This document shows, in pieces, positions 30,517 through 44,446 of a DNA stretch of 45,337 nt. Source of the DNA: Corallococcus sp. bb12-1 (GTDB lineage: Bacteria > Myxococcota > Myxococcia > Myxococcales > Myxococcaceae). The position numbers and the translations under genes were made by a program. The stretch covers positions 269,012 to 314,348 of the forward strand of contig NZ_JAPNJZ010000012.1 in assembly GCF_026626765.1 (NCBI RefSeq). The letters are read 5' to 3'. The stretch's first letter is position 1; every line of letters starts with the position of its first letter. The notes beneath the pieces are model-generated. The model worked only from the letters and a program-made list of their open reading frames with translations, searched no databases and was not told the DNA's origin.

Positions 30517-30564
30517 GAGGGCAACGGTGAAACCTAGCAGACCCGGGGCAAAGGACTTCAAGCC

Positions 30565-31737
30565 ATGCCCCCTCAGGGCCGCATGAGGGCTCCCCATGGC
30601 GCGGTACAATCGAGGCTCATGGACGCCGCACTGACCGAGCGCTGGCTTACGCCTGACGGCCTCCGCCGACGTGAACGGCTGGTGGCATTGGGACTCCGTG
30701 GGCCATGGCGCGAGGTCCTCGTCGGGTTTCCGGGCGTGGGCGCGTTGGATCCCGCGGTGGGAGACCTGCGGGGCATCGACCTGACGCAGGAGGAGTTACC
30801 CGGCGCGGACCTCGTCCGGGCCCGCCTTGATGGTGCTCGGCTGGATGACTGCGGCCTCATCGAGGCCCGGCTCGACCTGGCCACGCTGTCGGAGGCGTCG
30901 CTCACCTGGGCGCGTATGGACCGCGCCAGCCTGCTCGGGTGTGTGGCCTTGGGAGCGAGTTGGGACGATGCCTCGTTGGAGGGGGCGGTTCTCACGGCTT
31001 CCAACCTGACCCGGGGTTCCTTCCGCCGCACGCGACTCCGGGGAGCGCTGTTGACCGCGACGACGCTGCTGAAAGCGGACCTGCGTTGCGCGGACCTCCG
31101 GGGCACGGAGATCTCCTGCTGCGACATGGAGGAGGCACGTGTCGCGGGCGTCCGCACGGACCGTCCCCGGACCTATGCGCGGGAGACCTGGAACCAGGCC
31201 ACGATTCGCGCCCTTCTGGGGAGCGGATATCCCTCATTCCTGGATGCCATCCTGTTGTGGCCCGGGCCGATGTCGTTTCGGGGGCTCACCCAGGGGGCGG
31301 AGGTGCTGCGGAACGTGGAGGCAGGAGTGGAGGCAAGTCCTGGGGTGGATGCGGAGATCCTCGCTCTGTTCCAGGATGAGCCGTATCCCTTGCATTGGGT
31401 GGGCGCGGTGGCGATGCTGATTGGGGGCGCACGCAAGGAGACCCTGGATGCGCTGTGGTCGAGGCTCGACAAGGGCCGCGTGGCGCATCCACAACTCGTG
31501 GTGGTCGCGCTTCTCGTGGATCCAGCCTTCGAAGCGAAGGCCCGCACCCGGCTCGATGCGCCGAGCCGATTGGGTCCCGAGGTGCTCGCCAACCTTGCGT
31601 GGGCGCTCTCGCAGCGGACCGGCCATGCGGTCAATCCGAGCGCCACGACGAGAACCTGTCAGCGCTGGTTCGACAGCCTCCGAAAACAGATGGACCCGCG
31701 CATCCAGGCGCAATGGATTCCTTTGGCGGGGCAGTGA
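30565..31737 (+). CDS. Pentapeptide-repeat protein with a C-terminal domain of unknown function.
   Basis: Tandem A(D/N)LxX-type repeats (ADLVRARLDGARLDDCGLIEARLDLATLSEASLTWARMDRASLLGC...ADLRCADLRGTEI). Confidence 0.65.
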   Translation: MPPQGRMRAPHGAVQSRLMDAALTERWLTPDGLRRRERLVALGLRGPWREVLVGFPGVGALDPAVGDLRGIDLTQEELPGADLVRARLDGARLDDCGLIEARLDLATLSEASLTWARMDRASLLGCVALGASWDDASLEGAVLTASNLTRGSFRRTRLRGALLTATTLLKADLRCADLRGTEISCCDMEEARVAGVRTDRPRTYARETWNQATIRALLGSGYPSFLDAILLWPGPMSFRGLTQGAEVLRNVEAGVEASPGVDAEILALFQDEPYPLHWVGAVAMLIGGARKETLDALWSRLDKGRVAHPQLVVVALLVDPAFEAKARTRLDAPSRLGPEVLANLAWALSQRTGHAVNPSATTRTCQRWFDSLRKQMDPRIQAQWIPLAGQ

Positions 31738-31738
31738 C

Positions 31739-32563
31739 TCACTTGCTCCAACGCAGCAGTTTCGCGCGAGCCGTGTCGGACAGCTGGGTCACCACGAACT
31801 GTTCGAGCAGCGAGGGATCCGGCTCCTTGCGCACGGGCTCCACCATGAAGTCCCACGTCTCGAAGTCGTCCGCCTCCTGGAAGAGGATCAACCCCACGCC
31901 CATGCGCTGCGCTTCCGACGTGAGCCGCGCGATGTCCGTGTCGTCTGGGTTCTCGGGCGTTTCGAACAGGGCGAAGGCATGCGTGGCCGTCCTGGCGTGC
32001 GCGGCGGCCTCGAAGACCCCGGTGATGTTGAACTGCCAGCTCGGCTTGATTTCGAAGGTCCAGATGTCGAAGGTGCGACCGGGCCAGTGGGTGAAGGTCC
32101 GCATGCTGATGGCGGTGATGTCGGGGCGGGTCCACACGCCCCCCGTCTTCTTTCCCCCCTGGTTCGCGGTGATCTCGATGTGGAAGTCGTGCAGCCCGCG
32201 CTCCTTCGTCCACTTCTCGTGCAGCACTTCCAGGCATGGGGCGTAGAGGTCAACCTCCGCTCCCTCCTCGGGCTCGGGAGGAAGCTCCACGAGGCTGCCG
32301 CTGAAGGCATTCGTGTCAGAGGGTTTGATCTCCTTGACGATGTTGACGCTGCCGCCGCGCCCCCGGCCTCGGAGGATCTGTCCATCCTCGATGAGCTTCT
32401 CGCGCAGCCGCCAGTACTCTGATTCAGACCAACCCAATTCATTCATCAGGCTGGTGTTGCCGGAAGAGCCCCCGTTCTTGATCAAGACCTCGAGGAACTT
32501 CCGGCGCTGGGAGTCATCAACGGGGCGTCCTGCCATGGGAAGGTCTCCTTGCTTGACAGCCAT
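31739..32563 (-). CDS. Hypothetical protein with an N-terminal winged-helix-like region and a PD-(D/E)xK-like nuclease motif.
   Basis: RRKFLEVLIKNGGSSGNTSLMNELGWSESEYWRLREKLIEDGQILRGRG (wHTH-like). Then HDFHIEI...RPDITAI...FEIKP (D...PD...ExK arrangement). The ATG overlaps the stop of the upstream gene by 1 nt (TGATG). Confidence 0.5.
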   Translation of the reverse strand: MAVKQGDLPMAGRPVDDSQRRKFLEVLIKNGGSSGNTSLMNELGWSESEYWRLREKLIEDGQILRGRGRGGSVNIVKEIKPSDTNAFSGSLVELPPEPEEGAEVDLYAPCLEVLHEKWTKERGLHDFHIEITANQGGKKTGGVWTRPDITAISMRTFTHWPGRTFDIWTFEIKPSWQFNITGVFEAAAHARTATHAFALFETPENPDDTDIARLTSEAQRMGVGLILFQEADDFETWDFMVEPVRKEPDPSLLEQFVVTQLSDTARAKLLRWSK

Positions 32564-34125
32564 CAAGCCACAGCCAGGATGGATTTGCTTCGCTCCTCCT
32601 CAAGGAGCGCCAACGTCTTGCGGTACTCCGCTGCTTCCGCGAGCTGGGTCAGCTCGAACTCCCCGTGGTGCTTGCGCACGGTCGCGGCGATCTCCTCCAG
32701 GCTGACGCGGAAGAACTCTTTGCGCTCGTTGATGCGATTGACGCGCCGGTCCGTGAAGGCGCGGTGCAGTGCGTTCTCCAGCGCGGGGGCATCCGAGGTC
32801 CGGATGATGGCATGCACGTCAAACTCGAAGGGGACGGAGGCATCCCCCAGCTCGTCGATGCGGTCCTGTGGCACCAGCCTTCGCGTCATCCCCAGCTTGT
32901 AGACGCCCTCTCCGAAGGAGCCGATGTTGGAGATGACGTAGACGTGCCCCGTCCGCGTGAGCTGTGCCTGGGAGATGGCCCGTTGCTTCTCCATGTCCTC
33001 GGCCACCCGACGTTCCAACTCCGCGATGCGCTCCAGCATCCGCTGCTGCTCGGGCCCCTTGGCCTTCTCGTAGTCCAGCCGGGCCCGGGCCAGGGCGTCC
33101 GCATCGCGCTTTGCTTCACGCTCCGCTTCCAGCTTCGCCTTCTCCAACTCCCGCTGGGCGGTCTCTTCCTCGCGCATCTGCTCCCGGATGCGGCGCTGCT
33201 CGTCCCGCTCCTGCTGCACCTTCTCCGAGTACTCGTACGCCAGGAGCAGCTCATCCCGCTTCAGCTTCACGTACTTGCGCACGATGATGCACTGCTGGAT
33301 CTCCGTCAGGCTGTTGATGGCCGCCGCCGCCTTCTCCAGGCGCGTCTCCATGGCCTTCACGTTCTTGTACGTCACCTTCGCGATACAGGCGTCCGCCTCG
33401 CCATTGAAGGCGCGCAGCATCAGCTTTAGCGTCCGCTCCGTCTGCTTCCTGCCTTCCGCCTTGCTGCCGTTGACCTCCCACTCCAACGAACACGTCGCTG
33501 CCTGCTTGTCCTTCAACATCTGTTTCTGGGCTTCGCGGAGCGTCTCCAGCCGGTCCTCGTACTCCTTCACCGAGGACAGGGCATACACGGGCTTGTAGAA
33601 GCCGAAGGAGAGCAGGACGGCCTCCTCCTCCAGCTCCTTCAGCTCCGTTTTCAATCGGCCGATGCCCGATTCCAGCCCCGTGCGCTCCGTGTTCGCCTGG
33701 AGCCGCCGCGCCTCCGCCTCCGACATGGCCCGTTTCGCGGCCTCCGTCGTCCGGGTGGCTTCGTCGCGAAGGCGTGTCAGCTCCGCCTTGGCCCGCGTCT
33801 GTTCCGCGGCGACGGCCTGCTCGACGTCCGCCTTCGCCTTCGCGAGCTGGGTCTCCACCCGCTTCTGCTCCGCCGCGAGAGTGGTGTCCGCCTCACTCCG
33901 GGCCCGGGCAAGCTCCTCCTGGACGCGCTTCTTCTCCGACGCCATGGCGGCGTCCGCATCCGTGCGCGAGCGGGTCAATTCCTCCGCGACGCGGCGTCGC
34001 TCGGCTTCCAGGTCCAGGATGGGTTTGAAGCGCTCCTGGACCACCCGGAGCTGAACCCGGGTCCGGAACCACAGTCCTACGAAGAGCAGGGCCAGCGCTC
34101 CAAGCCCGATGGCAATGATTGTCAT
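32563..34125 (-). CDS. Membrane-anchored coiled-coil protein with a DUF4041 domain and a C-terminal T5orf172 (GIY-YIG-like/MUG113) domain.
   Basis: N-terminal TM helix MTIIAIGLGALALLFVGLWF. ~170 aa of heptad-rich E/R/A repeats. C-terminal GHVYVISNIGSFGEGVYKLGMTRRLVPQDRIDELGDASVPFEFDVHAIIRTSDAPALENALHRAF...ERKEFFRVSLEEI, characteristic of T5orf172. Confidence 0.7.
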   Translation of the reverse strand: MTIIAIGLGALALLFVGLWFRTRVQLRVVQERFKPILDLEAERRRVAEELTRSRTDADAAMASEKKRVQEELARARSEADTTLAAEQKRVETQLAKAKADVEQAVAAEQTRAKAELTRLRDEATRTTEAAKRAMSEAEARRLQANTERTGLESGIGRLKTELKELEEEAVLLSFGFYKPVYALSSVKEYEDRLETLREAQKQMLKDKQAATCSLEWEVNGSKAEGRKQTERTLKLMLRAFNGEADACIAKVTYKNVKAMETRLEKAAAAINSLTEIQQCIIVRKYVKLKRDELLLAYEYSEKVQQERDEQRRIREQMREEETAQRELEKAKLEAEREAKRDADALARARLDYEKAKGPEQQRMLERIAELERRVAEDMEKQRAISQAQLTRTGHVYVISNIGSFGEGVYKLGMTRRLVPQDRIDELGDASVPFEFDVHAIIRTSDAPALENALHRAFTDRRVNRINERKEFFRVSLEEIAATVRKHHGEFELTQLAEAAEYRKTLALLEEERSKSILAVA

Positions 34126-34158
34126 GGATGTCCCCCCACCGAAGCGGGAAAGTCTAAC

Positions 34159-37100
34159 TCAGGCACTCAGCGAACGCATCTGGCCCTCGGCGGGAGGGTC
34201 GTTGCGGACCACCTTGGGCCGCTCCGCCGTGTCCTCTTCGCGGAGCAGTGTGTCGATGCGCGCGACGATGCGCGCGACCTCTTCCGCCGGCGAGCGGAAC
34301 CAATCCGTGGACCAGATGCGATGCAGCCGCCACCCCAGCCCCGTCAACACCTGGTCTCTCAGCCGGTCGCGATCCCGGGCGGAGCGTGAGCTGTGATAGC
34401 GCTCTCCGTCACACTCCACCCCCAGGATGTAACGGCCGGGATGGCGGGGATGCCGGATGGCCAGATCGATGAAGTAGCCCGCGACGCCCACCTGCGGCAC
34501 GACTTCGTACTGGTGCGCCGCGAGCGCCTTCGCCACCGCCACCTCGAAATCCGAATCCGGAGGGCGTCCGCTTCCGACGCCGTGGGCCACGAGCGCACCC
34601 TGGGCCTCGAACAGGTAGCGCTGCAGGACGCGCATCCCCCGGGGGCTGCTCTCCTGCACCTTGAGGTCTGATGGCTCAAACGACGCGAACACCGTCAGCG
34701 CGGACCGTGCCCGCGTGAAGAGCACGTTCAAGCGCCGGTACCCGTCCGCCTGGTTGATGGGGCCGAAGTTCTGCCGGAAACGGCCGTCCCGATCCTTGCC
34801 GAACGTCACGGAGACGAAGATGGCGTCGCGCTCGTCGCCCTGGACGTTCTCCAGGTTCTTCACATCGAAGGGATTGGGCGTTTTCGCCCAGGACGCCAGG
34901 AAGGCCGCGAGTCTGGCGTCCTTCTTCTCTTCCGCCAGCACCAGCGTATCGATGAGCTCCCGCTGCTTCGAGTTCAGCGTGACGACCAGCAGGCTCTGCT
35001 CGGGTCGGGTGTGCGCGTGCTGCCGCACCGCCTCCACCACCGCGCGGGCCTCGGGCTCGTTGCGGTTGGACTCATAGAGTCCGTTCTCCACCCGCACGAA
35101 GCGGACCCCCAATCCTTCCATGTGCTGTCCGGGCGCGGGAAAGACAATGAGGTCTCCGTTGTAGAACTCCCTGTTGCTGAAGGAGATGAGCGCCGGGTGC
35201 CGGGAGCGGTAGTGCCAGCGCAGCATGCGCATGGGGAATCGTCGCGCGGCGGCCACCAGGATGCTCTCCGACTCATCCAGGAGGGACGGACCTCTTGCCT
35301 CCTCCGGGTCCGTGACTTCTTCACCCGTGTCTTCGTCATCCCGTTCGAGCTGCGCGAAGAAGCTCGTGGGCGGAAGCTGCTCCGGGTCTCCCACCACCAC
35401 CAACTGACTGCCGCGTGCGATGGCGCCCAGCGCGTCTTCCGGACGGAGCTGGCTGGCCTCATCCATCACCACCAGGTCGAAACGCAGGTGCCCGGGCGGC
35501 AGGTATTGGGACACGGACTGCGGACCCATCATGAAACAGGGCATCAGCGCCTGAAGCGCGCTCCCCGCGCGTTGCACCAGCTCCCGGATGGAGACGTGTC
35601 GCTGCTTCTTGCCCAGCTCATGCTGGATGAGCTGAACCTCCGTCAGGCCCGCCACCTTCTGCGAGTGCACGCCCTGCGGCACCGGTCGGCGGCTGAGCTG
35701 ATGTGCCAGGTTCGGTCCCTGCTGCCCGATGAGCTGTGCATCCAGTCGCGCGAAGTCCTCACGCTGCGCGGCATGCACGGCGCCCGTGAACTGATCGAGC
35801 TCCGGCTGTTCCCTCAAGACGGACTCGGCCAGGGACCGGAAGAAGACGGCGTCGAAAGCCGCGAGCAGCTTCGTCGCCAGCGCCGGCCGGGCGTCGATCC
35901 GCTCCAGGAACGCGGTGGTGGAGCGCAGGCGCGTTACCGCGTGCCGGTGTCGCTGGTACGCGGCCCAGGCGGGGAGGGTGCTCGCGCGCTCCAGTGCCCG
36001 GTGCAACCGCCGCATCGTGGCCGTGAGCGGTGCCTCGGAGGCCGCGTCCTCCCAGGTTCCGGGCTCCATGCGTCCCAGCTCCTGCGCCCGTACCGTCGCG
36101 TCGCGGTAGTCCCGCAGTCGGGCTTCCACGTCGCGGCTTCGCGCCACCAGGCCTGCATGGCGACGTGCCGTGTCCTCCCGGAGCAGCCAGTCCGCGAAGC
36201 CTTCGGGAAGAGGGGCCGCGAGCACGTCATCCACGTAGCGCGCGAGCGCCCGGGGGCCGGCCGTGAGCGTCTTCCTTCCCTGGGACTCCGCGCCCAGCAA
36301 CGCGGACGCCACCGTGTGGTCCTTCAGTCGCTCCGCTGCCTCGCACGCTTCGCGCACGGTGCGCACCTGGGCCTGGAACTGGACCAGGGACAGTGAAGGC
36401 GGCGCAGCCGCCCGGCGAGCCTGGTCCAGGACCTCTCCCAGGTGGACGCGGAGCGCTCCCAGGCTGGATTTCACCTGGGACGCGGGGTTGGTGTTCCACG
36501 AACTCTTCCGCAGGTGCATGCGCGTGGCGGCTTCCTGCACCGCGTCGCTCACGTTCCGGGCCTGGAGGTGGGCATCCCCCTGGACCGAGGCCTTGGCGAT
36601 CGCCTCGCGCCAGCGGTTCGCGGGCAGCTCCAGGGCCATGCGCGCCAGGGGCTCGACGCTGGCGCCCATGGGACGCAGCAGCGCTTCCACCTTCCGCCAG
36701 ACCTCCACCCAGGCGAGGAGCCGATCAAAGCGCGTCGCGGTCCCCTGGAAGCGCTCGCCCAACAGCTCTCGCAAGGACGCGTCCGCATGGAAACGCTCAC
36801 GGGCGGCGTGATGCGCCAGCAGATCGTTGTACCCGAGGATCAGCAAGGGCCGTGTCGGCCGCAGACCATGGGCCATGGCCTGGAAGTCGCGCCGTGCAAA
36901 GCGCCACCCCCGCGACAGCCACGGGATGAACGGCGCGGTCGACACGGCGACGGCGTGCGCCTTCAGCGTCTCCAGGCAGGGGACGAGTTCGGGCATGAAG
37001 CGGACGGCGAGGGCTCGCGACTGTTCATCCAGGTCGTCGCGGGTGCGCGCCGCGCTTCGCAGCAGCTCCTCCGCCGCGGGCGTCACCCAGCACGCATCGC

Positions 37101-39342
37101 GCCACTCCAGGACGCCGTCGTCCAGCTCCGCCATCGCGTCCACGACCCGCGCGAGCGTCTGGATCATCACGGGCGACAAAGGCCCTTCGAGCCCCAACAC
37201 GGGAGCGAGTCCTTCCGCGAACGCCAGTCCCTGATCCACCGCCGCCAGCGCGTGCTCCACCGCGTCGCGTGCCCGCACCACGGTGAGCAGCGGAGTGTCC
37301 GGGGTGAAGAGCCGCAGGCTGGTGTCCAGCACCGCCTCCGCGCCCTTCAGGGCCTCCACGGTCAGGTCCTCGCGGGAACGCCAACCGGCCTCCAGCCCCG
37401 CCCACTGCCGTTGCATCAACTCGACGGCATCCAGGAACGAGCGCAGGGCTTCGCGGTTCGCTGCCTCCAGGAGGGCGCACTGAAGGCCAGGACGTGGTGG
37501 GGTCGGGGGCTCGGGCAGCAGTCGCACCGCGCTCACGAGGGCGTCCGCCGCGAGGGCGCTGTTCCGTAAGGCCGTTCCCGTGAGCGGGGCCAGCGCCGCC
37601 AGGGACTGCTCCAGGCCCAGCGCGGCTTCCTTCCATGCGGTGGTCCGCTCGATGAGCGCCTGGCAATCCCCAGCACTCAGGCTGGGATTCCTGATTCCGG
37701 ACCAGGGATGTTCGGAGGGCAGGGGCGCGACGCGGAGGATGTCCTTGAACTGAGCCGCGAGTCCCCGGAGCGCCTCGTGCACCTCCTCCAGGGTCGAGGG
37801 AGAAACGCTCGCGGCCGCCTCGATGCGCACGTCCTTGAGCGCCGCGATGTCATCTCCCAGCTCCGTTTCGGCCCGGCCCACCCTCCAGAAGATGTCGTGC
37901 GGCGTCAGCCCCAGGCCTCCCTGGACCGAATGCAGTCGTTCGGTGTGCGCGCGCAGGATGCCCATGGCATGCGTGACCTGGGCGCCCAGGGAGCCTGTCG
38001 CGACCGGCGTGGGCCGTTGTTTCAGCCGTCTGCGCAGGTCCTCCATGAACTGCTGCTTCTGGGTCTTGTGGCTGTGCAGCTCCAGGCAGAAGTCGCCCAG
38101 CCCTGCCTGCTGGAGCCGTCGGGAGACGACCTCCAGGGCGGCCATCTTCTGGGTGACGAACAGCACCGTCTTGCCCGCGGCCAGCGCCGCGCCAATGAGG
38201 TTGGTGATGGTCTGGGACTTCCCCGTGCCCGGTGGGCCCTGGACCACCAGACTTTCGCCCCGCAGCACGTCCACCAGCACGCTGTGCTGGCTGCTGTCCG
38301 CGTCCGTGATGAGCGGAGGGATTTCCGGCGCGAGTGCCGGTGAGTCCAGGTCATAGACATCGCTCCGGCGCTCCGCGATGGCTGGTAAACGCCCGCTCGC
38401 GGACTCCTTCTCCTGTCTGGCACCCAGCAGGGTTCGGACCTGGGGGCTGGCCAGCAGGGGGCTCGCTTCGGGCCATCGACCCGGCTCCAGGTCCCGCCAC
38501 ATGAGCAGCCGTCCAAAGGACAGCAACGTCAGGGTGACCTGCCGCTCCAGTTTCCACCCAGGACGCAAGTCCGCCAGGAGCGTGCTCACCTTCGCGAAGT
38601 ACGCCTCCAGCCCTTCGTCCGCATCGAAGGGGGGCAGGGTGATGCCGAACTCCTGCCGCAACTTCTCCTGGAGCGTGAGGTTGAGTTCGATGGACTCTCC
38701 CTCGTTGTAGTCCACCTCGTAGGCGTGGACCTGCGTCCTCGCATCGGGTGCGTTGCGCCGGAGGCTGACAGGCATCAGCACCAGGGGCGCGCTGCGCGGT
38801 TTCTCCCGCGCGACATCCCCGGGCTCGTACCAGCGCAGGAATCCGAAGACGAGGTGGAGCAGGTTCGCTCCCGTCTCCTGGATGGCGGTCTGCGCGAGTC
38901 CCTGCAATTGACGCAGCTGGGACTCCAGCTCCTCCGGAAAGTAGAGCGTCTGGACGTGGCGGTCCTGGTGCTTGCGCGGACCGGCCGCGCTGTCCGTCGA
39001 GGCCAGAGGCAGTTCGAAGCGGGTGTCGATGCCCAGCCGTTCGGCCTCCTGGGTCGCCAGCCGTTGCCGGGACACGGGGGGCGCGATGGTCTCCATCGTG
39101 AACACGCCGGGGCGGGGCTCCTTCGCGGGAGCTTCGCGTTCGGGCTCAGGCACTGGCAGGAACGTGAGCGCGCGATGGTTGCTCAGTCGCTCGAAGATGA
39201 CGCCGGGGAGTTCATCCACCAGCCGCAGCGATGTCCTCGCGGTGTGCCGGAAGTGGAGGAGCCGGTTGGATGCACTCAGGTCCAGGAGCCGCGTGCGCTG
39301 CCGTTCAAGCTCCTTCAGCAGGACCGGATCTTGCGGAGTCAT
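34159..39342 (-). CDS. Large (1727 aa) DUF4011/Upf1-like SF1 helicase fused to DUF3320 and a C-terminal DUF559 (Vsr-like) endonuclease domain. Hhe-like defence helicase-nuclease.
   Basis: N-terminal LLDLSASNRLLHF (DUF4011-type). Walker A GPPGTGKSQT, motif II DLVVMDEASQL, VVVGDPEQLPP, motif VI GYRRLNVLFTRAR. C-terminus YILGVECDGERYHSSRSARDRDRLRDQVLTGLGWRLHRIWSTDWF (DUF559/Vsr fold). Strong RBS GGGGAGGGG. Confidence 0.8.
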   Translation of the reverse strand: MTPQDPVLLKELERQRTRLLDLSASNRLLHFRHTARTSLRLVDELPGVIFERLSNHRALTFLPVPEPEREAPAKEPRPGVFTMETIAPPVSRQRLATQEAERLGIDTRFELPLASTDSAAGPRKHQDRHVQTLYFPEELESQLRQLQGLAQTAIQETGANLLHLVFGFLRWYEPGDVAREKPRSAPLVLMPVSLRRNAPDARTQVHAYEVDYNEGESIELNLTLQEKLRQEFGITLPPFDADEGLEAYFAKVSTLLADLRPGWKLERQVTLTLLSFGRLLMWRDLEPGRWPEASPLLASPQVRTLLGARQEKESASGRLPAIAERRSDVYDLDSPALAPEIPPLITDADSSQHSVLVDVLRGESLVVQGPPGTGKSQTITNLIGAALAAGKTVLFVTQKMAALEVVSRRLQQAGLGDFCLELHSHKTQKQQFMEDLRRRLKQRPTPVATGSLGAQVTHAMGILRAHTERLHSVQGGLGLTPHDIFWRVGRAETELGDDIAALKDVRIEAAASVSPSTLEEVHEALRGLAAQFKDILRVAPLPSEHPWSGIRNPSLSAGDCQALIERTTAWKEAALGLEQSLAALAPLTGTALRNSALAADALVSAVRLLPEPPTPPRPGLQCALLEAANREALRSFLDAVELMQRQWAGLEAGWRSREDLTVEALKGAEAVLDTSLRLFTPDTPLLTVVRARDAVEHALAAVDQGLAFAEGLAPVLGLEGPLSPVMIQTLARVVDAMAELDDGVLEWRDACWVTPAAEELLRSAARTRDDLDEQSRALAVRFMPELVPCLETLKAHAVAVSTAPFIPWLSRGWRFARRDFQAMAHGLRPTRPLLILGYNDLLAHHAARERFHADASLRELLGERFQGTATRFDRLLAWVEVWRKVEALLRPMGASVEPLARMALELPANRWREAIAKASVQGDAHLQARNVSDAVQEAATRMHLRKSSWNTNPASQVKSSLGALRVHLGEVLDQARRAAAPPSLSLVQFQAQVRTVREACEAAERLKDHTVASALLGAESQGRKTLTAGPRALARYVDDVLAAPLPEGFADWLLREDTARRHAGLVARSRDVEARLRDYRDATVRAQELGRMEPGTWEDAASEAPLTATMRRLHRALERASTLPAWAAYQRHRHAVTRLRSTTAFLERIDARPALATKLLAAFDAVFFRSLAESVLREQPELDQFTGAVHAAQREDFARLDAQLIGQQGPNLAHQLSRRPVPQGVHSQKVAGLTEVQLIQHELGKKQRHVSIRELVQRAGSALQALMPCFMMGPQSVSQYLPPGHLRFDLVVMDEASQLRPEDALGAIARGSQLVVVGDPEQLPPTSFFAQLERDDEDTGEEVTDPEEARGPSLLDESESILVAAARRFPMRMLRWHYRSRHPALISFSNREFYNGDLIVFPAPGQHMEGLGVRFVRVENGLYESNRNEPEARAVVEAVRQHAHTRPEQSLLVVTLNSKQRELIDTLVLAEEKKDARLAAFLASWAKTPNPFDVKNLENVQGDERDAIFVSVTFGKDRDGRFRQNFGPINQADGYRRLNVLFTRARSALTVFASFEPSDLKVQESSPRGMRVLQRYLFEAQGALVAHGVGSGRPPDSDFEVAVAKALAAHQYEVVPQVGVAGYFIDLAIRHPRHPGRYILGVECDGERYHSSRSARDRDRLRDQVLTGLGWRLHRIWSTDWFRSPAEEVARIVARIDTLLREEDTAERPKVVRNDPPAEGQMRSLSA

Positions 39343-39443
39343 CGGTGGGTGCCCCTCCCCGGGTCGTCACGCGAAGGGCGACCTGGCACTCCGGGTTCTG
39401 ACGCATCCGGCGCGGCGGGGGCATCCCCCGTGAGGGGTATGGA

Positions 39444-39467
39444 CACGCCACGGAATTCAGCGTGGCG
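39444..39467. promoter_or_regulatory. Perfect 8-bp inverted repeat (with a gaattcag loop) in the 143-nt gap upstream of the helicase-nuclease gene. Candidate operator or terminator of the preceding small ORF.
   Basis: acgccacg-gaattcag-cgtggcgt. Confidence 0.3.
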
Positions 39468-39485
39468 TCGTCCGGGGCGGAGGAC

Positions 39486-39950
39486 TCAATCGCAGTTGTC
39501 GAACACCAGGATGCCTGGACCGTATGGGGTCAGCACGGGGACCCACGCCTCGGTGACTTCATCCAGGCGCTCCCGGTCCAGAGCCAGATGGAGCCTTTCG
39601 TCCGAGTTTTCATGAAGTTGTGTGCGCCACATCGGAACGCGGCTGACGAGTGCGGCCAGGTGCTCGAAACGCCAGGCACTCCAGTCCTCACGGACGTAGG
39701 GGTTGCCGCCGAACTCCTTCGCGAAGAAGGCGATGAGCGCCTTCTCCACGTCGAACAATTCGTCGACTTCGGGATCCGGGCTCGTATCGGTTGAATGAAG
39801 CAGCACGAGGAAGCCCTCCGCCGTTCGCTCACTGTTCCGGAGCCCGTCGCACTGGTGCCCATACACGACGCCCGTAGGGGCCTGAACGATGACGGCGAGT
39901 CCAAACGGCCGGCTGCCATCCGGGTTCAAGAAGACATAGTGGGGCGTCAT
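39486..39950 (-). CDS. Hypothetical protein (154 aa), first gene of the candidate defence cluster.
   Basis: ORF with RBS GAGGAGAGAG upstream of the ATG. Codon usage resembles that of its neighbours. No recognisable domain. Confidence 0.45.
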   Translation of the reverse strand: MTPHYVFLNPDGSRPFGLAVIVQAPTGVVYGHQCDGLRNSERTAEGFLVLLHSTDTSPDPEVDELFDVEKALIAFFAKEFGGNPYVREDWSAWRFEHLAALVSRVPMWRTQLHENSDERLHLALDRERLDEVTEAWVPVLTPYGPGILVFDNCD

Positions 39951-39987
39951 GGCTCTCTCCTCGTAGCACCTCCGAACTCACGAAATT

Positions 39988-43255: not shown

Positions 43256-44446
43256 ATGGACCCCCGCGTCGCAAACCTCCTGAGCCACGTTCGCGCGCAG
43301 GCCGAGAACCGGCCCGGCGTGTACCGCATGTCCGGTCCCTCGGGCGAGCTGCTCTACGTGGGCAAGTCCGTGCGGGTGCGCACGCGGCTGTTGTCGTACT
43401 TCCGCGCGGACGAGGGCGAGAAGGCGGCGGAGATCATCGCGCAGGCGCACCGGGTGGAATGGGAGTACACGGCCAGCGAGTTCGCGGCGCTGCTGCACGA
43501 GTTCCGGCTCATCAAGAGCCACCGGCCGCTCTACAACGTGGAGCACAAGAAGGACCGCGCGCACTGCTTCCTGCAACTCACACGGGAGGCCGTGCCCCGG
43601 CTGCGCGTCGTGGGCCAGCCCGGTGGCAGCGGGAGCGCGGAGTACTTCGGGCCCTTCCACGGCCGGCACACCATGGCGGACGTGGTGCGCGCCGTGAACG
43701 ACCTGCTGGAGCTGCGCGACTGTCCCTCCGACACGCCGATGCGGCTGGCGGATCAGTTCCAGCTCTTCCCCATGAAGGACGACCCCCGGTGCATGCGAGG
43801 GCAGACGGCGCGGTGCCTCTCTCCGTGCGCGGCCGGGTGCACGCAGGCGGAGTACCTGGAGCGCGTCTCGTTGGCGCGGGCGTTCCTGAACGGGGAATCA
43901 GACCGGCCGCTGGTCATCCTGCGCGAGCGCATGGCGATGGCGGCGCGGCGGCTCCAGTTCGAATACGCGGCGGAGTTGCGCGACCGCGCCGAGCGGCTGG
44001 AGAACGTGCGGGCGTGGATCGTCGAGCTGGGCCGGACGTTGCGGCGCCTGTCGTTGGTCTACACGGTGCGGGGACAGCTCGGGGGCGAGGACCGGACCTA
44101 CGTGCTGCGCCGGGGACGGATTCGCGCGGAGGTTCCGACGCCCCAGACGCCGGAGGAACAGACGGCGCTGGATGCGCGGGTGCGGGACATCTTCGCGCTG
44201 CCGGAGCCGGAAGCGATTGGCCTTCGGGCGCAGGAGGCGCAGGAGGTGATGCTCATCGCGAAGTGGTTCCGCCTGCATCCCGAGGAGTTGGAGGGCACGG
44301 TGCCTGCTTCGGCGCGCACCGGCACCGGCGAGGCCTCCGAGGAAGTCGCGGAGGCTCGGGTCGCGCTGGCTCGGACGCTGGATCGCACCGTGGAGGGGCC
44401 GGGTGGAGGGGAAGAGGGGGCGGTTGTTGAAGACAGTGCCGTCTAG
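43256..44446 (+). CDS. UvrC N-terminal-half homolog (GIY-YIG nuclease plus UVR domain), Cho-like.
   Basis: GIY-YIG: GVYRMSGPSGELLYVGKS...EWEY. Cys cluster CMRGQTARCLSPCAAGC. UVR-like helix pair LQFEYAAELRDRAERLENV. The C-terminal RNaseH/HhH half of UvrC is absent. Confidence 0.7.
   Translation: MDPRVANLLSHVRAQAENRPGVYRMSGPSGELLYVGKSVRVRTRLLSYFRADEGEKAAEIIAQAHRVEWEYTASEFAALLHEFRLIKSHRPLYNVEHKKDRAHCFLQLTREAVPRLRVVGQPGGSGSAEYFGPFHGRHTMADVVRAVNDLLELRDCPSDTPMRLADQFQLFPMKDDPRCMRGQTARCLSPCAAGCTQAEYLERVSLARAFLNGESDRPLVILRERMAMAARRLQFEYAAELRDRAERLENVRAWIVELGRTLRRLSLVYTVRGQLGGEDRTYVLRRGRIRAEVPTPQTPEEQTALDARVRDIFALPEPEAIGLRAQEAQEVMLIAKWFRLHPEELEGTVPASARTGTGEASEEVAEARVALARTLDRTVEGPGGGEEGAVVEDSAV

Follow-up and report, generated by a model that had tools for sequence, protein, structure and literature searches.

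PD-lambda-1, now named SNIPE, is an inner-membrane-anchored GIY-YIG nuclease of Escherichia coli, which cuts phage DNA at injection and is able to protect E. coli alone (Saxton et al., Nature 2026; PMC13190303). Its transmembrane helix blocks self-cleavage, its DUF4041 domain binds DNA and the tape-measure complex, and the homologues are hypervariable in the N-terminal region (PMC13190303). Hhe is described as a single-gene system in which a helicase domain is combined with a nuclease domain (bioRxiv 10.1101/2024.10.10.617714). In Pseudomonas aeruginosa, cDHS1 is a core defence hotspot, one flank of which consists of a small hypothetical gene and a large DUF4011 gene (Johnson et al., NAR 2023; PMC10250203). 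The DNA analysed here is a stretch of 45,337 nucleotides from Corallococcus sp. bb12-1 (the window; all positions are window coordinates). Next to an ABC-F gene, it contains a variable island with four genes, g4 to g1 (Tables 1 and 2), of which g3 is predicted to encode a Hhe-like helicase-nuclease, g2 a SNIPE homologue and g1 a protein with a winged helix and a PD-(D/E)xK domain. The favoured explanation, to which a probability of about 0.7 is given, is that the island is hotspot cargo and that g3, g2 and g1 are three independent nuclease-based single-gene modules, co-directional but not forming one composite system. The only new element of the island is the g1 nuclease family. An earlier annotation of this sequence, made by a model and called here the original prediction, had described a candidate defence island and had hesitated between one composite system and two or three adjacent ones; the independent gain, loss and swapping of the genes in relatives favours the second option.

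The product of g2 is, from its sequence, a clear SNIPE homologue, in which all three SNIPE regions are present. It matches the PADLOC PD-Lambda-1 model PDLC03977 (E = 5.5e-150) along profile positions 52-478 of 496, that is, over 427 positions. Like SNIPE, it begins with a transmembrane helix (residues 2-20, TIIAIGLGALALLFVGLWF; mean Kyte-Doolittle value of 2.36 in a 19-residue window), a central DUF4041 domain (Pfam PF13250, E = 1.4e-19, residues 234-289, model positions 1-56 of 56) and a C-terminal GIY-YIG/T5orf172 nuclease domain at residues 393-485 (T5orf172, E = 1.5e-17; MUG113, E = 7.5e-18). The membrane-anchored T5orf172 protein of the original prediction is thereby recovered. Across DUF4041 and the nuclease, g2 is 49% identical to a 500-aa E. 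coli DUF4041 protein, and its Glu450 is aligned with Glu414 of that homologue, which may differ from the published SNIPE protein. About 170 N-terminal residues of g2 cannot be aligned to the E. coli protein; they form a long helical spacer, rich in Ala, Glu and Arg, that follows the transmembrane helix directly. The host is also different: in a myxobacterium, the ManYZ partner of E. coli and targets of the lambda type need not apply to g2. SNIPE homologues were also located on Hymenobacter, E. coli and Leptospira replicons, and none of the three has a Hhe-like or g1-like neighbour.

Judging from its domains, g3 belongs to the single-gene Hhe/PDC-S37 group and is a Hhe-like DUF4011 helicase-nuclease, as had been proposed. 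It shares with that group the architecture of one large polypeptide with an N-terminal DUF4011 (E = 2.8e-34), a split superfamily 1 (SF1) helicase (AAA_11, E = 1.7e-15; AAA_12, E = 1.9e-15) and a C-terminal Vsr-like nuclease at residues 1599-1696 (REase_MTES_1575, E = 1.8e-37; DUF559, E = 0.0051), all found by Pfam. The SF1 ATPase motifs are intact: the Walker A motif GPPGTGKS is located at residue 369 and DEASQ at residue 1294, 925 residues apart. On PADLOC, the best match is PDC-S37 with 1222 bits, and Hhe is matched with 937 bits, both very high scores. Hhe normally carries a C-terminal DUF3320. This domain, which figured in the list of models that the original prediction had drawn up for searching, is absent from g3 (no Pfam hit at E <= 0.01), a difference from Hhe, and the NCBIfam Hhe alignment of g3 ends at model position 1690 of 1797. 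The combination of genes had been presented as one not recognizable as a named system; it contains a named single-gene system, SNIPE, and a member of the Hhe/PDC-S37 group, and the modules vary independently.

In Corallococcus, a variable defence hotspot is located immediately downstream of the ABC-F gene. Nine comparison genomes were anchored on this gene, and the interval from it to the C2/BrkB genes takes at least five different cargo states in them (Table 1). Conserved flanks enclose a strain-variable cargo that matches PADLOC families, which upholds the candidate defence island of the original prediction. Modular gain, loss and swapping are observed among the relatives. In GCA_003612065 (L086), the 160 bp left at the site (1804-1963) consist of the Hhe leader hairpin joined to g1 codons 212-265 (tblastn, E = 3e-12); therefore, the absence of the island in this genome is a deletion and not a gain in the window strain. 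The Hhe-like/SNIPE/g1 block is 92% identical in nucleotides to that of PMG_225 (L001), equal to the flanks. This equality and the g1 scar indicate that the island is ancestral in the clade and that it is remodelled, or decays, module by module. Like cDHS1, the site has conserved housekeeping flanks around strain-variable defence cargo and no obvious mobile-element machinery. It differs from cDHS1 in its flanks, which are here the ABC-F and the C2-domain/BrkB/rml genes, in the position of the DUF4011 gene, which lies here within the variable cargo, in the genus and in the number of genomes compared, nine.

Table 1. Gene order at the hotspot in Corallococcus and relatives, read outward from the ABC-F gene.
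Genome	Handle	Gene order
bb12-1 (window)		ABC-F, DUF6210, Hhe-like, SNIPE, g1, pentapeptide, C2
PMG_225	L001	ABC-F, Hhe-like, SNIPE, g1, C2
BB11-1	L081	ABC-F, DUF6210, 92-aa Hhe remnant (4.9-kb internal deletion), SNIPE, g1, C2
C. praedator x2	L084, L085	ABC-F, Hhe-like, SNIPE, SIR2_2, 220-aa gene, C2
C. exiguus x2	L088, L089	ABC-F, Hhe-like, SNIPE, SIR2_2, 221-aa gene, pentapeptide
GCA_003612065	L086	ABC-F, 160 bp, C2
	L087, L090	ABC-F, 145-aa gene, PDC-M51A radical-SAM gene, ATPase, kinase; IS66 also in L090
Myxococcus sp. SDU36	L091	no island

OV208_16800 of Corallococcus sp. bb12-1 and the g1 protein are 100% identical. For comparison, g1 was aligned with 30 homologues that share 31-80% identity with it. 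In these, the N-terminal region closes with an invariant GRGRGGS motif, located in the wing, and the C-terminal region contains the invariant residues E94, P138-D139, E162-x-K164, E176 and H180, the signature of a PD-(D/E)xK nuclease. The AlphaFold model (predicted local distance difference test, pLDDT, of 88.5) consists of a winged helix at residues ~5-66, followed by a linker and the nuclease domain, the core of which is alpha-beta-beta-beta-alpha-beta, with the catalytic residues canonically placed. Alignment and structure model thus agree with the winged helix and PD-(D/E)xK domain attributed earlier to this gene. MUS81 and the catalytic domains of AspBHI and MspJI are among the Foldseek matches, which are weak (E-values of 3e-3 to 2e-2). 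The winged helix has the Zalpha fold and resembles MarR/ArsR-type regulators.

No hit was obtained for g1 in the copies of Pfam-A, NCBIfam 20.0 and PADLOC 2.0 that were searched. Likewise, neither g1 nor any of the 30 family members gave a Pfam hit to Mrr_N, Mrr_cat or other restriction families, and the family profile found no match among the sequences of the PDB. The family is nevertheless large: searched against 1.84 billion representatives, its profile retrieved 3199 clusters at E <= 1e-3 and 585 at E <= 1e-30. In many members the N-terminus is extended, by two to six winged helices in tandem or otherwise. Certain members have an N-terminal XRE-type helix-turn-helix (HTH), and four proteins of 580-765 aa (P0243, P0246, P0253 and P0257) possess five to six tandem winged helices before a single nuclease domain.

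Binding of Z-DNA by the winged helix was also considered. In Zalpha of ADAR1, Z-DNA is contacted by Asn173, Tyr177 and Trp195. A comparison by eye only places Trp and Glu of the g1 consensus at the Asn and Tyr positions, respectively, with GRGRGGS in the wing; the fold agrees, the key contacts may not be kept, and the similarity is treated as one of fold only.

In a scan of the GTDB species genomes, 144 g1-like loci were returned; the 80 that were retained come from Myxococcota, Alpha-, Beta- and Gammaproteobacteria, Acidobacteriota, Planctomycetota, Actinomycetota, Chloroflexota, Spirochaetota, Cloacimonadota and others. After clustering of the open reading frames (ORFs) within 7 kb of g1, no neighbour family was present in more than 8 of the 80 loci, and both the orientation of the homologues and their distance to the neighbours are variable. 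Among these loci, SNIPE adjoins g1 only once, in PMG_225, a close relative of the window. The original prediction had asked whether the four genes are co-conserved elsewhere; with this single SNIPE/g1 locus, the three SNIPE homologues that stand without partners and DUF6210 genes in unrelated contexts, they are not. The immediate neighbours of g1 often match PADLOC families: mad3 and mad8 (MADS), AriA, LmuB, AbiLi and PDC-S06, but also DrmMI, Type IIG restriction-modification, DpdE, PD-T4-6, MkoA and PDC-S48. Hence g1 behaves as an autonomous gene, moving with defence islands and prophages.

Two further contexts were seen in the scan. In one contig of a Cloacimonadales metagenome-assembled genome, a 7.15-kb segment with g1 occurs twice (L066 6313-13464 and L067 6313-13464; 99.3% identity) and adjoins genes for a MuA-like transposase and a MuB-like ATPase and Mu-F-like genes; this g1 appears to be carried as accessory cargo by a Mu-like prophage. 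Large Hhe-like DUF4011 genes lie within one or two genes of g1 in three unrelated lineages, Acetobacteraceae, Gordonia and Bosea (L012 4627-9792, L045 3943-9627 and a 2032-aa ORF in L055). They are the commonest identifiable g1 neighbour, a proximity whose significance has to be read without a background rate.

Mrr-type, or Type IV, enzymes (Mrr, MspJI, AspBHI) are the closest known counterparts in organization: in g1, as in these, an N-terminal DNA-binding domain precedes a PD-(D/E)xK domain with D...ExK, and the gene resides in defence islands without a conserved methyltransferase partner (80 loci). On the other hand, g1 has no sequence match to Mrr_N, Mrr_cat or the restriction models of PADLOC and NCBIfam, its structural matches are weak, and in place of SRA or Mrr_N it uses a compact, Zalpha-like winged helix as putative binding domain. 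By analogy, g1 would most plausibly act as a solitary Type IV-like (Mrr-type) restriction enzyme; that its cleavage would depend on DNA modification is pure conjecture. It is tentatively proposed that the g1 family represents widespread, undescribed stand-alone anti-phage nucleases, in which the Zalpha-like winged helix would recognize a structural or chemical feature of foreign nucleic acid and the protein's own nuclease domain would cut.

For strain bb12-1, we infer the following activities. By analogy with Hhe, the SF1 helicase of g3 would sense phage replication or DNA-metabolism activity, and the fused Vsr-like nuclease would be the effector. In g2, DUF4041 would bind DNA and the tape-measure complex, and phage DNA would be cut at injection. 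The winged helix of g1, with its Arg-rich wing, may recognize some feature of foreign nucleic acid, its substrate, which the intact catalytic site would then cleave without a partner methyltransferase, like a Mrr-type (Type IV-like) enzyme. The three genes g3, g2 and g1 are probably co-transcribed.

Several observations weigh against three independent modules. In six of the nine genomes of the Corallococcus clade that were compared, the Hhe-like and SNIPE genes are adjacent, 14-34 nt apart, and no terminator was found between them; they may therefore be co-expressed and show some functional interplay. In the three genomes that have g1 at the hotspot, it is always found with SNIPE. The swap of g1 for the SIR2 and 220-aa genes starts within the last ~9 SNIPE codons and resembles the effector swapping of true multi-gene systems. 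Unlike a Hhe equivalog, g3 stays below the NCBIfam cut-off (NF042953; 1396.8 bits vs. 2000), as it does for ProA (NF058533; 1097.6 bits vs. 1500), a protein of which no description was found in the literature search. Its best match, PDC-S37, has a candidate-only label ("PDC" stands for phage defence candidates in PADLOC), and the literature search gave no report of its testing. As for g1, a candidate stand-alone defence nuclease, the role is read from genomic context, for which there is no background rate. The Hhe-like protein, SNIPE and an exchangeable third effector (g1, or SIR2 with the 220-aa protein) could be imagined as one co-regulated, cooperative composite system, in which, for example, SNIPE nicks the incoming DNA, the helicase-nuclease processes the nicked DNA and the third protein is a back-up effector. 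The tight spacing without internal terminators, the Hhe-like/SNIPE pair, the alternation of two effector-type proteins in the third slot and the Hhe-like genes near g1 in Acetobacteraceae, Gordonia and Bosea would fit such a system, and it is because of the tight adjacency in the genus and of the breakpoint in the last SNIPE codons that a small chance of functional coupling is left. More speculatively, the third slot after SNIPE could be an exchangeable effector position (g1 or SIR2 plus 220 aa) of a cooperative Hhe-like/SNIPE operon. A composite system is nonetheless rather improbable, because each module is gained, lost or swapped independently of the others and because g1 has no conserved partner in the 80 loci: BB11-1 has lost the Hhe-like gene and keeps SNIPE and g1 intact, and 79 of the 80 g1 loci are devoid of SNIPE. 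Moreover, SNIPE and Hhe each work alone in E. coli, three SNIPE homologues elsewhere have neither partner, and the co-occurrence is limited to one genus, where vertical inheritance explains it.

Alternatively, g1 might not be an immunity nuclease but a transcriptional regulator of the neighbouring defence genes, acting through its winged helix and with the nuclease-like domain as a sensor, or a nuclease of mobile elements or of DNA repair. Its classic N-terminal winged helix of MarR/ArsR-type likeness, the relatives with an additional XRE-type HTH or with two to six tandem winged helices, and the homologue inside a Mu-like transposable element would be compatible with this, and winged-helix regulators such as BrxR and CapW are known beside diverse defence systems. 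Such a role is unlikely: E94, D139, E162 and K164 are invariant in the 30 sequences, which argues for an active enzyme, a dedicated regulator should keep the orientation and the distance to its neighbours, both of which vary, and the patchy distribution over many phyla in variable contexts argues against core repair. Very improbable is, finally, a recent acquisition of the block as a foreign island, which the original prediction had suggested on the basis of a lower GC content. The site does vary between strains, and the proportion of G and C at third codon positions (GC3) of g1-g3 is slightly under that of the housekeeping genes, with lower values still, 0.77-0.79, for g4 and the pentapeptide gene. 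But the total GC cannot be told apart from that of the adjacent ABC-F gene, the identity of the block to that of its relative, 92%, is about that of the flanks, no integrase, transposase or flanking repeat is present, and the g1 remnant kept in the island-free strain L086 points to a deletion there and to an ancestral island. Three independent modules in a hotspot remain the preferred explanation.

Taken as a whole, the island is ordinary; what it contributes is a myxobacterial example of SNIPE and one of Hhe-like helicase-nucleases. The lead worth following is g1, a compact putative nuclease whose predicted active site is intact, present in more than ten phyla and outside the family libraries searched. 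Should protection by g1 be demonstrated, the protein would constitute a new restriction-like system of one gene and might supply a new DNA-recognition specificity. The ABC-F-anchored hotspot of Corallococcus, now documented, can be mined for the SIR2 plus 220-aa pair, the PDC-M51A cargo and DUF6210. The strain series, in which the Hhe-like gene is lost or g1 is replaced, represents a natural experiment on independent versus joint action.

The variable island is bounded by the ABC-F gene and, at the other end, by the side of the conserved C2-domain gene (Table 2). Its placement between a pentapeptide-repeat gene and the ABC-F gene in the original prediction is accurate for the ABC-F flank; the pentapeptide gene itself is part of the variable cargo. 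The four minus-strand ORFs are co-directional, and in its longest form the g1 ORF covers 31739-32566. Each of the four gene starts is preceded by a Shine-Dalgarno-like motif, in accordance with the ribosome-binding sites (RBSs) reported before. The tight packing also reported holds for the 33 nt between g3 and g2 but not for g4 and g3, which are 143 nt apart. No RBS precedes the first ATG of g1; AAGGAG lies 8 nt upstream of the second (32536). This second ATG is the annotated start, giving 265 aa, and agrees with the N-termini of the homologues. It is therefore probably the true start, and the real gap between g2 and g1 is about 26 nt. Translational coupling of g2 and g1 through a 1-nt TGATG overlap, which requires the RBS-less ATG, is ruled out by the RBS and the homologue N-termini.

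Table 2. Features of the island in the window (minus strand, -; plus strand, +; aa, amino acids).
Feature	Position	Strand	Basis
Variable island	30522-39986	.	blastn of the window vs. L086, L084, L081, L088, L001
g4, DUF6210 protein, 154 aa	39486-39950	-	Pfam
Conserved hairpin CATACCCCTCACGGGGGATG	39422-39441	-	sequence comparison with L001, L084, L086, L087
g3, putative Hhe-like helicase-nuclease, 1727 aa	34159-39342	-	Pfam, PADLOC, NCBIfam, motifs
g2, SNIPE (PD-lambda-1) homologue, 520 aa	32563-34125	-	PADLOC, Pfam, hydropathy
g1, winged helix + PD-(D/E)xK protein, 265 aa	31739-32536	-	alignment, structure prediction
Pentapeptide-repeat protein, 390 aa	30565-31737	+	Pfam Pentapeptide, E = 4.9e-18

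Housekeeping genes flank the island on both sides: dTDP-rhamnose (rml) genes, BrkB, the C2-domain protein and a 162-aa protein on one, and ABC-F, Tgt and a UvrC-like GIY-YIG protein on the other. A 396-aa protein at 43256-44446 has a weak GIY-YIG match and a match to phrog_22664; its gene is syntenic, is kept in relatives, where it is annotated UvrC_M, and is probably core rather than defence. The block contains no integrase or transposase, as noted before. Flanking repeats and internal terminators were looked for and none were found, and the same is true of mobile-element signatures at the island borders. The lower GC proposed for the block is a marginal dip: windowed GC is 0.63-0.71 in the block, 0.635-0.644 on the ABC-F side and 0.665-0.686 on the pentapeptide side. 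GC3 amounts to 0.85-0.88 for g1-g3; in the housekeeping genes that flank the island, taken outward from BrkB and from ABC-F, it is 0.89-0.95, and the only two outliers are g4 (0.77) and the pentapeptide gene (0.79, the second-lowest value in the region). Base composition is at best a faint foreign signal, strongest for these two genes.

The SIR2 slot was seen in four assemblies (for example, L084 18598-21051 and L088 8717-11119), where a SIR2_2 protein of 576-594 aa is accompanied by a 220-aa protein without a family. On PADLOC, SIR2_2 has weak matches to pAgo-associated SIR2 and PDC-S65; the 220-aa protein matches nothing and is unrelated to g1. An identification of the pair with Thoeris (ThsA/ThsB) is not supported, as the PADLOC matches are weak and none concerns the 220-aa protein. 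The pair may be an undescribed two-gene SIR2 system. A different cargo occupies L087 (1909-9081): a 145-aa protein, a B12-binding radical-SAM protein matching PDC-M51A (PADLOC, E = 1e-151), an AAA_21 ATPase with a methyltransferase domain, a 483-aa protein and a Ser/Thr kinase. L090 is alike, with an additional IS66 insertion.

The gene called an orphan ORF in the original prediction, g4, is a member of the small, mostly myxobacterial DUF6210 family (Pfam, E = 4e-18), for whose predicted fold no relative was found in the PDB. Look-ups for an identical sequence retrieved nothing for g4 or for the ABC-F protein. The g4 gene forms a cassette of ~523 bp (39456-39978), with the ABC-F terminator hairpin on one side and a second, conserved hairpin on the other. 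An imperfect direct repeat of 10 bp (GAATTTCGTG / GAATTCCGTG) borders the cassette; cassette-free relatives have one copy of it. The cassette is present in BB11-1 and absent from L001, L084 and L088. DUF6210 as a partner of the Hhe-like gene is ruled out by this mismatched presence and absence, since five genomes with the Hhe-like gene lack DUF6210 and the genome that has lost the Hhe-like gene carries it, and by its unrelated contexts elsewhere; in M. stipitatus, for example, the DUF6210 gene is located between TetR and short-chain dehydrogenase/reductase (SDR) genes. Its inclusion in a four-gene system, as first suggested, is accordingly abandoned: g4 is a presence/absence cassette, found in non-defence contexts elsewhere.

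The conserved hairpin lies in the leader of the Hhe-like gene, after the ABC-F terminator. All the junctions that were read retain a recognizable version, some with substitutions, and it is kept whatever the cargo, also in island-deleted and other-cargo strains. A role in regulation, or as a landmark for recombination, is conceivable.

The pentapeptide gene is convergent with g1, their stop codons being 1 nt apart. The repeats of its product extend over residues ~66-200 and are followed by a C-terminal region of ~190 aa without a family. It is absent in L001, L081 and L086, and a homologue occupies the same relative position, at the distal end, in C. exiguus (L088 and L089). Like DUF6210, it is separate presence/absence cargo and not a part of the three modules. 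In another genome (L083, GCA_036704275.1, 600-15200), a DUF6210 gene and a small pentapeptide gene are found in a series of ~20 co-directional small ORFs without a family, beside an IS110 transposase.

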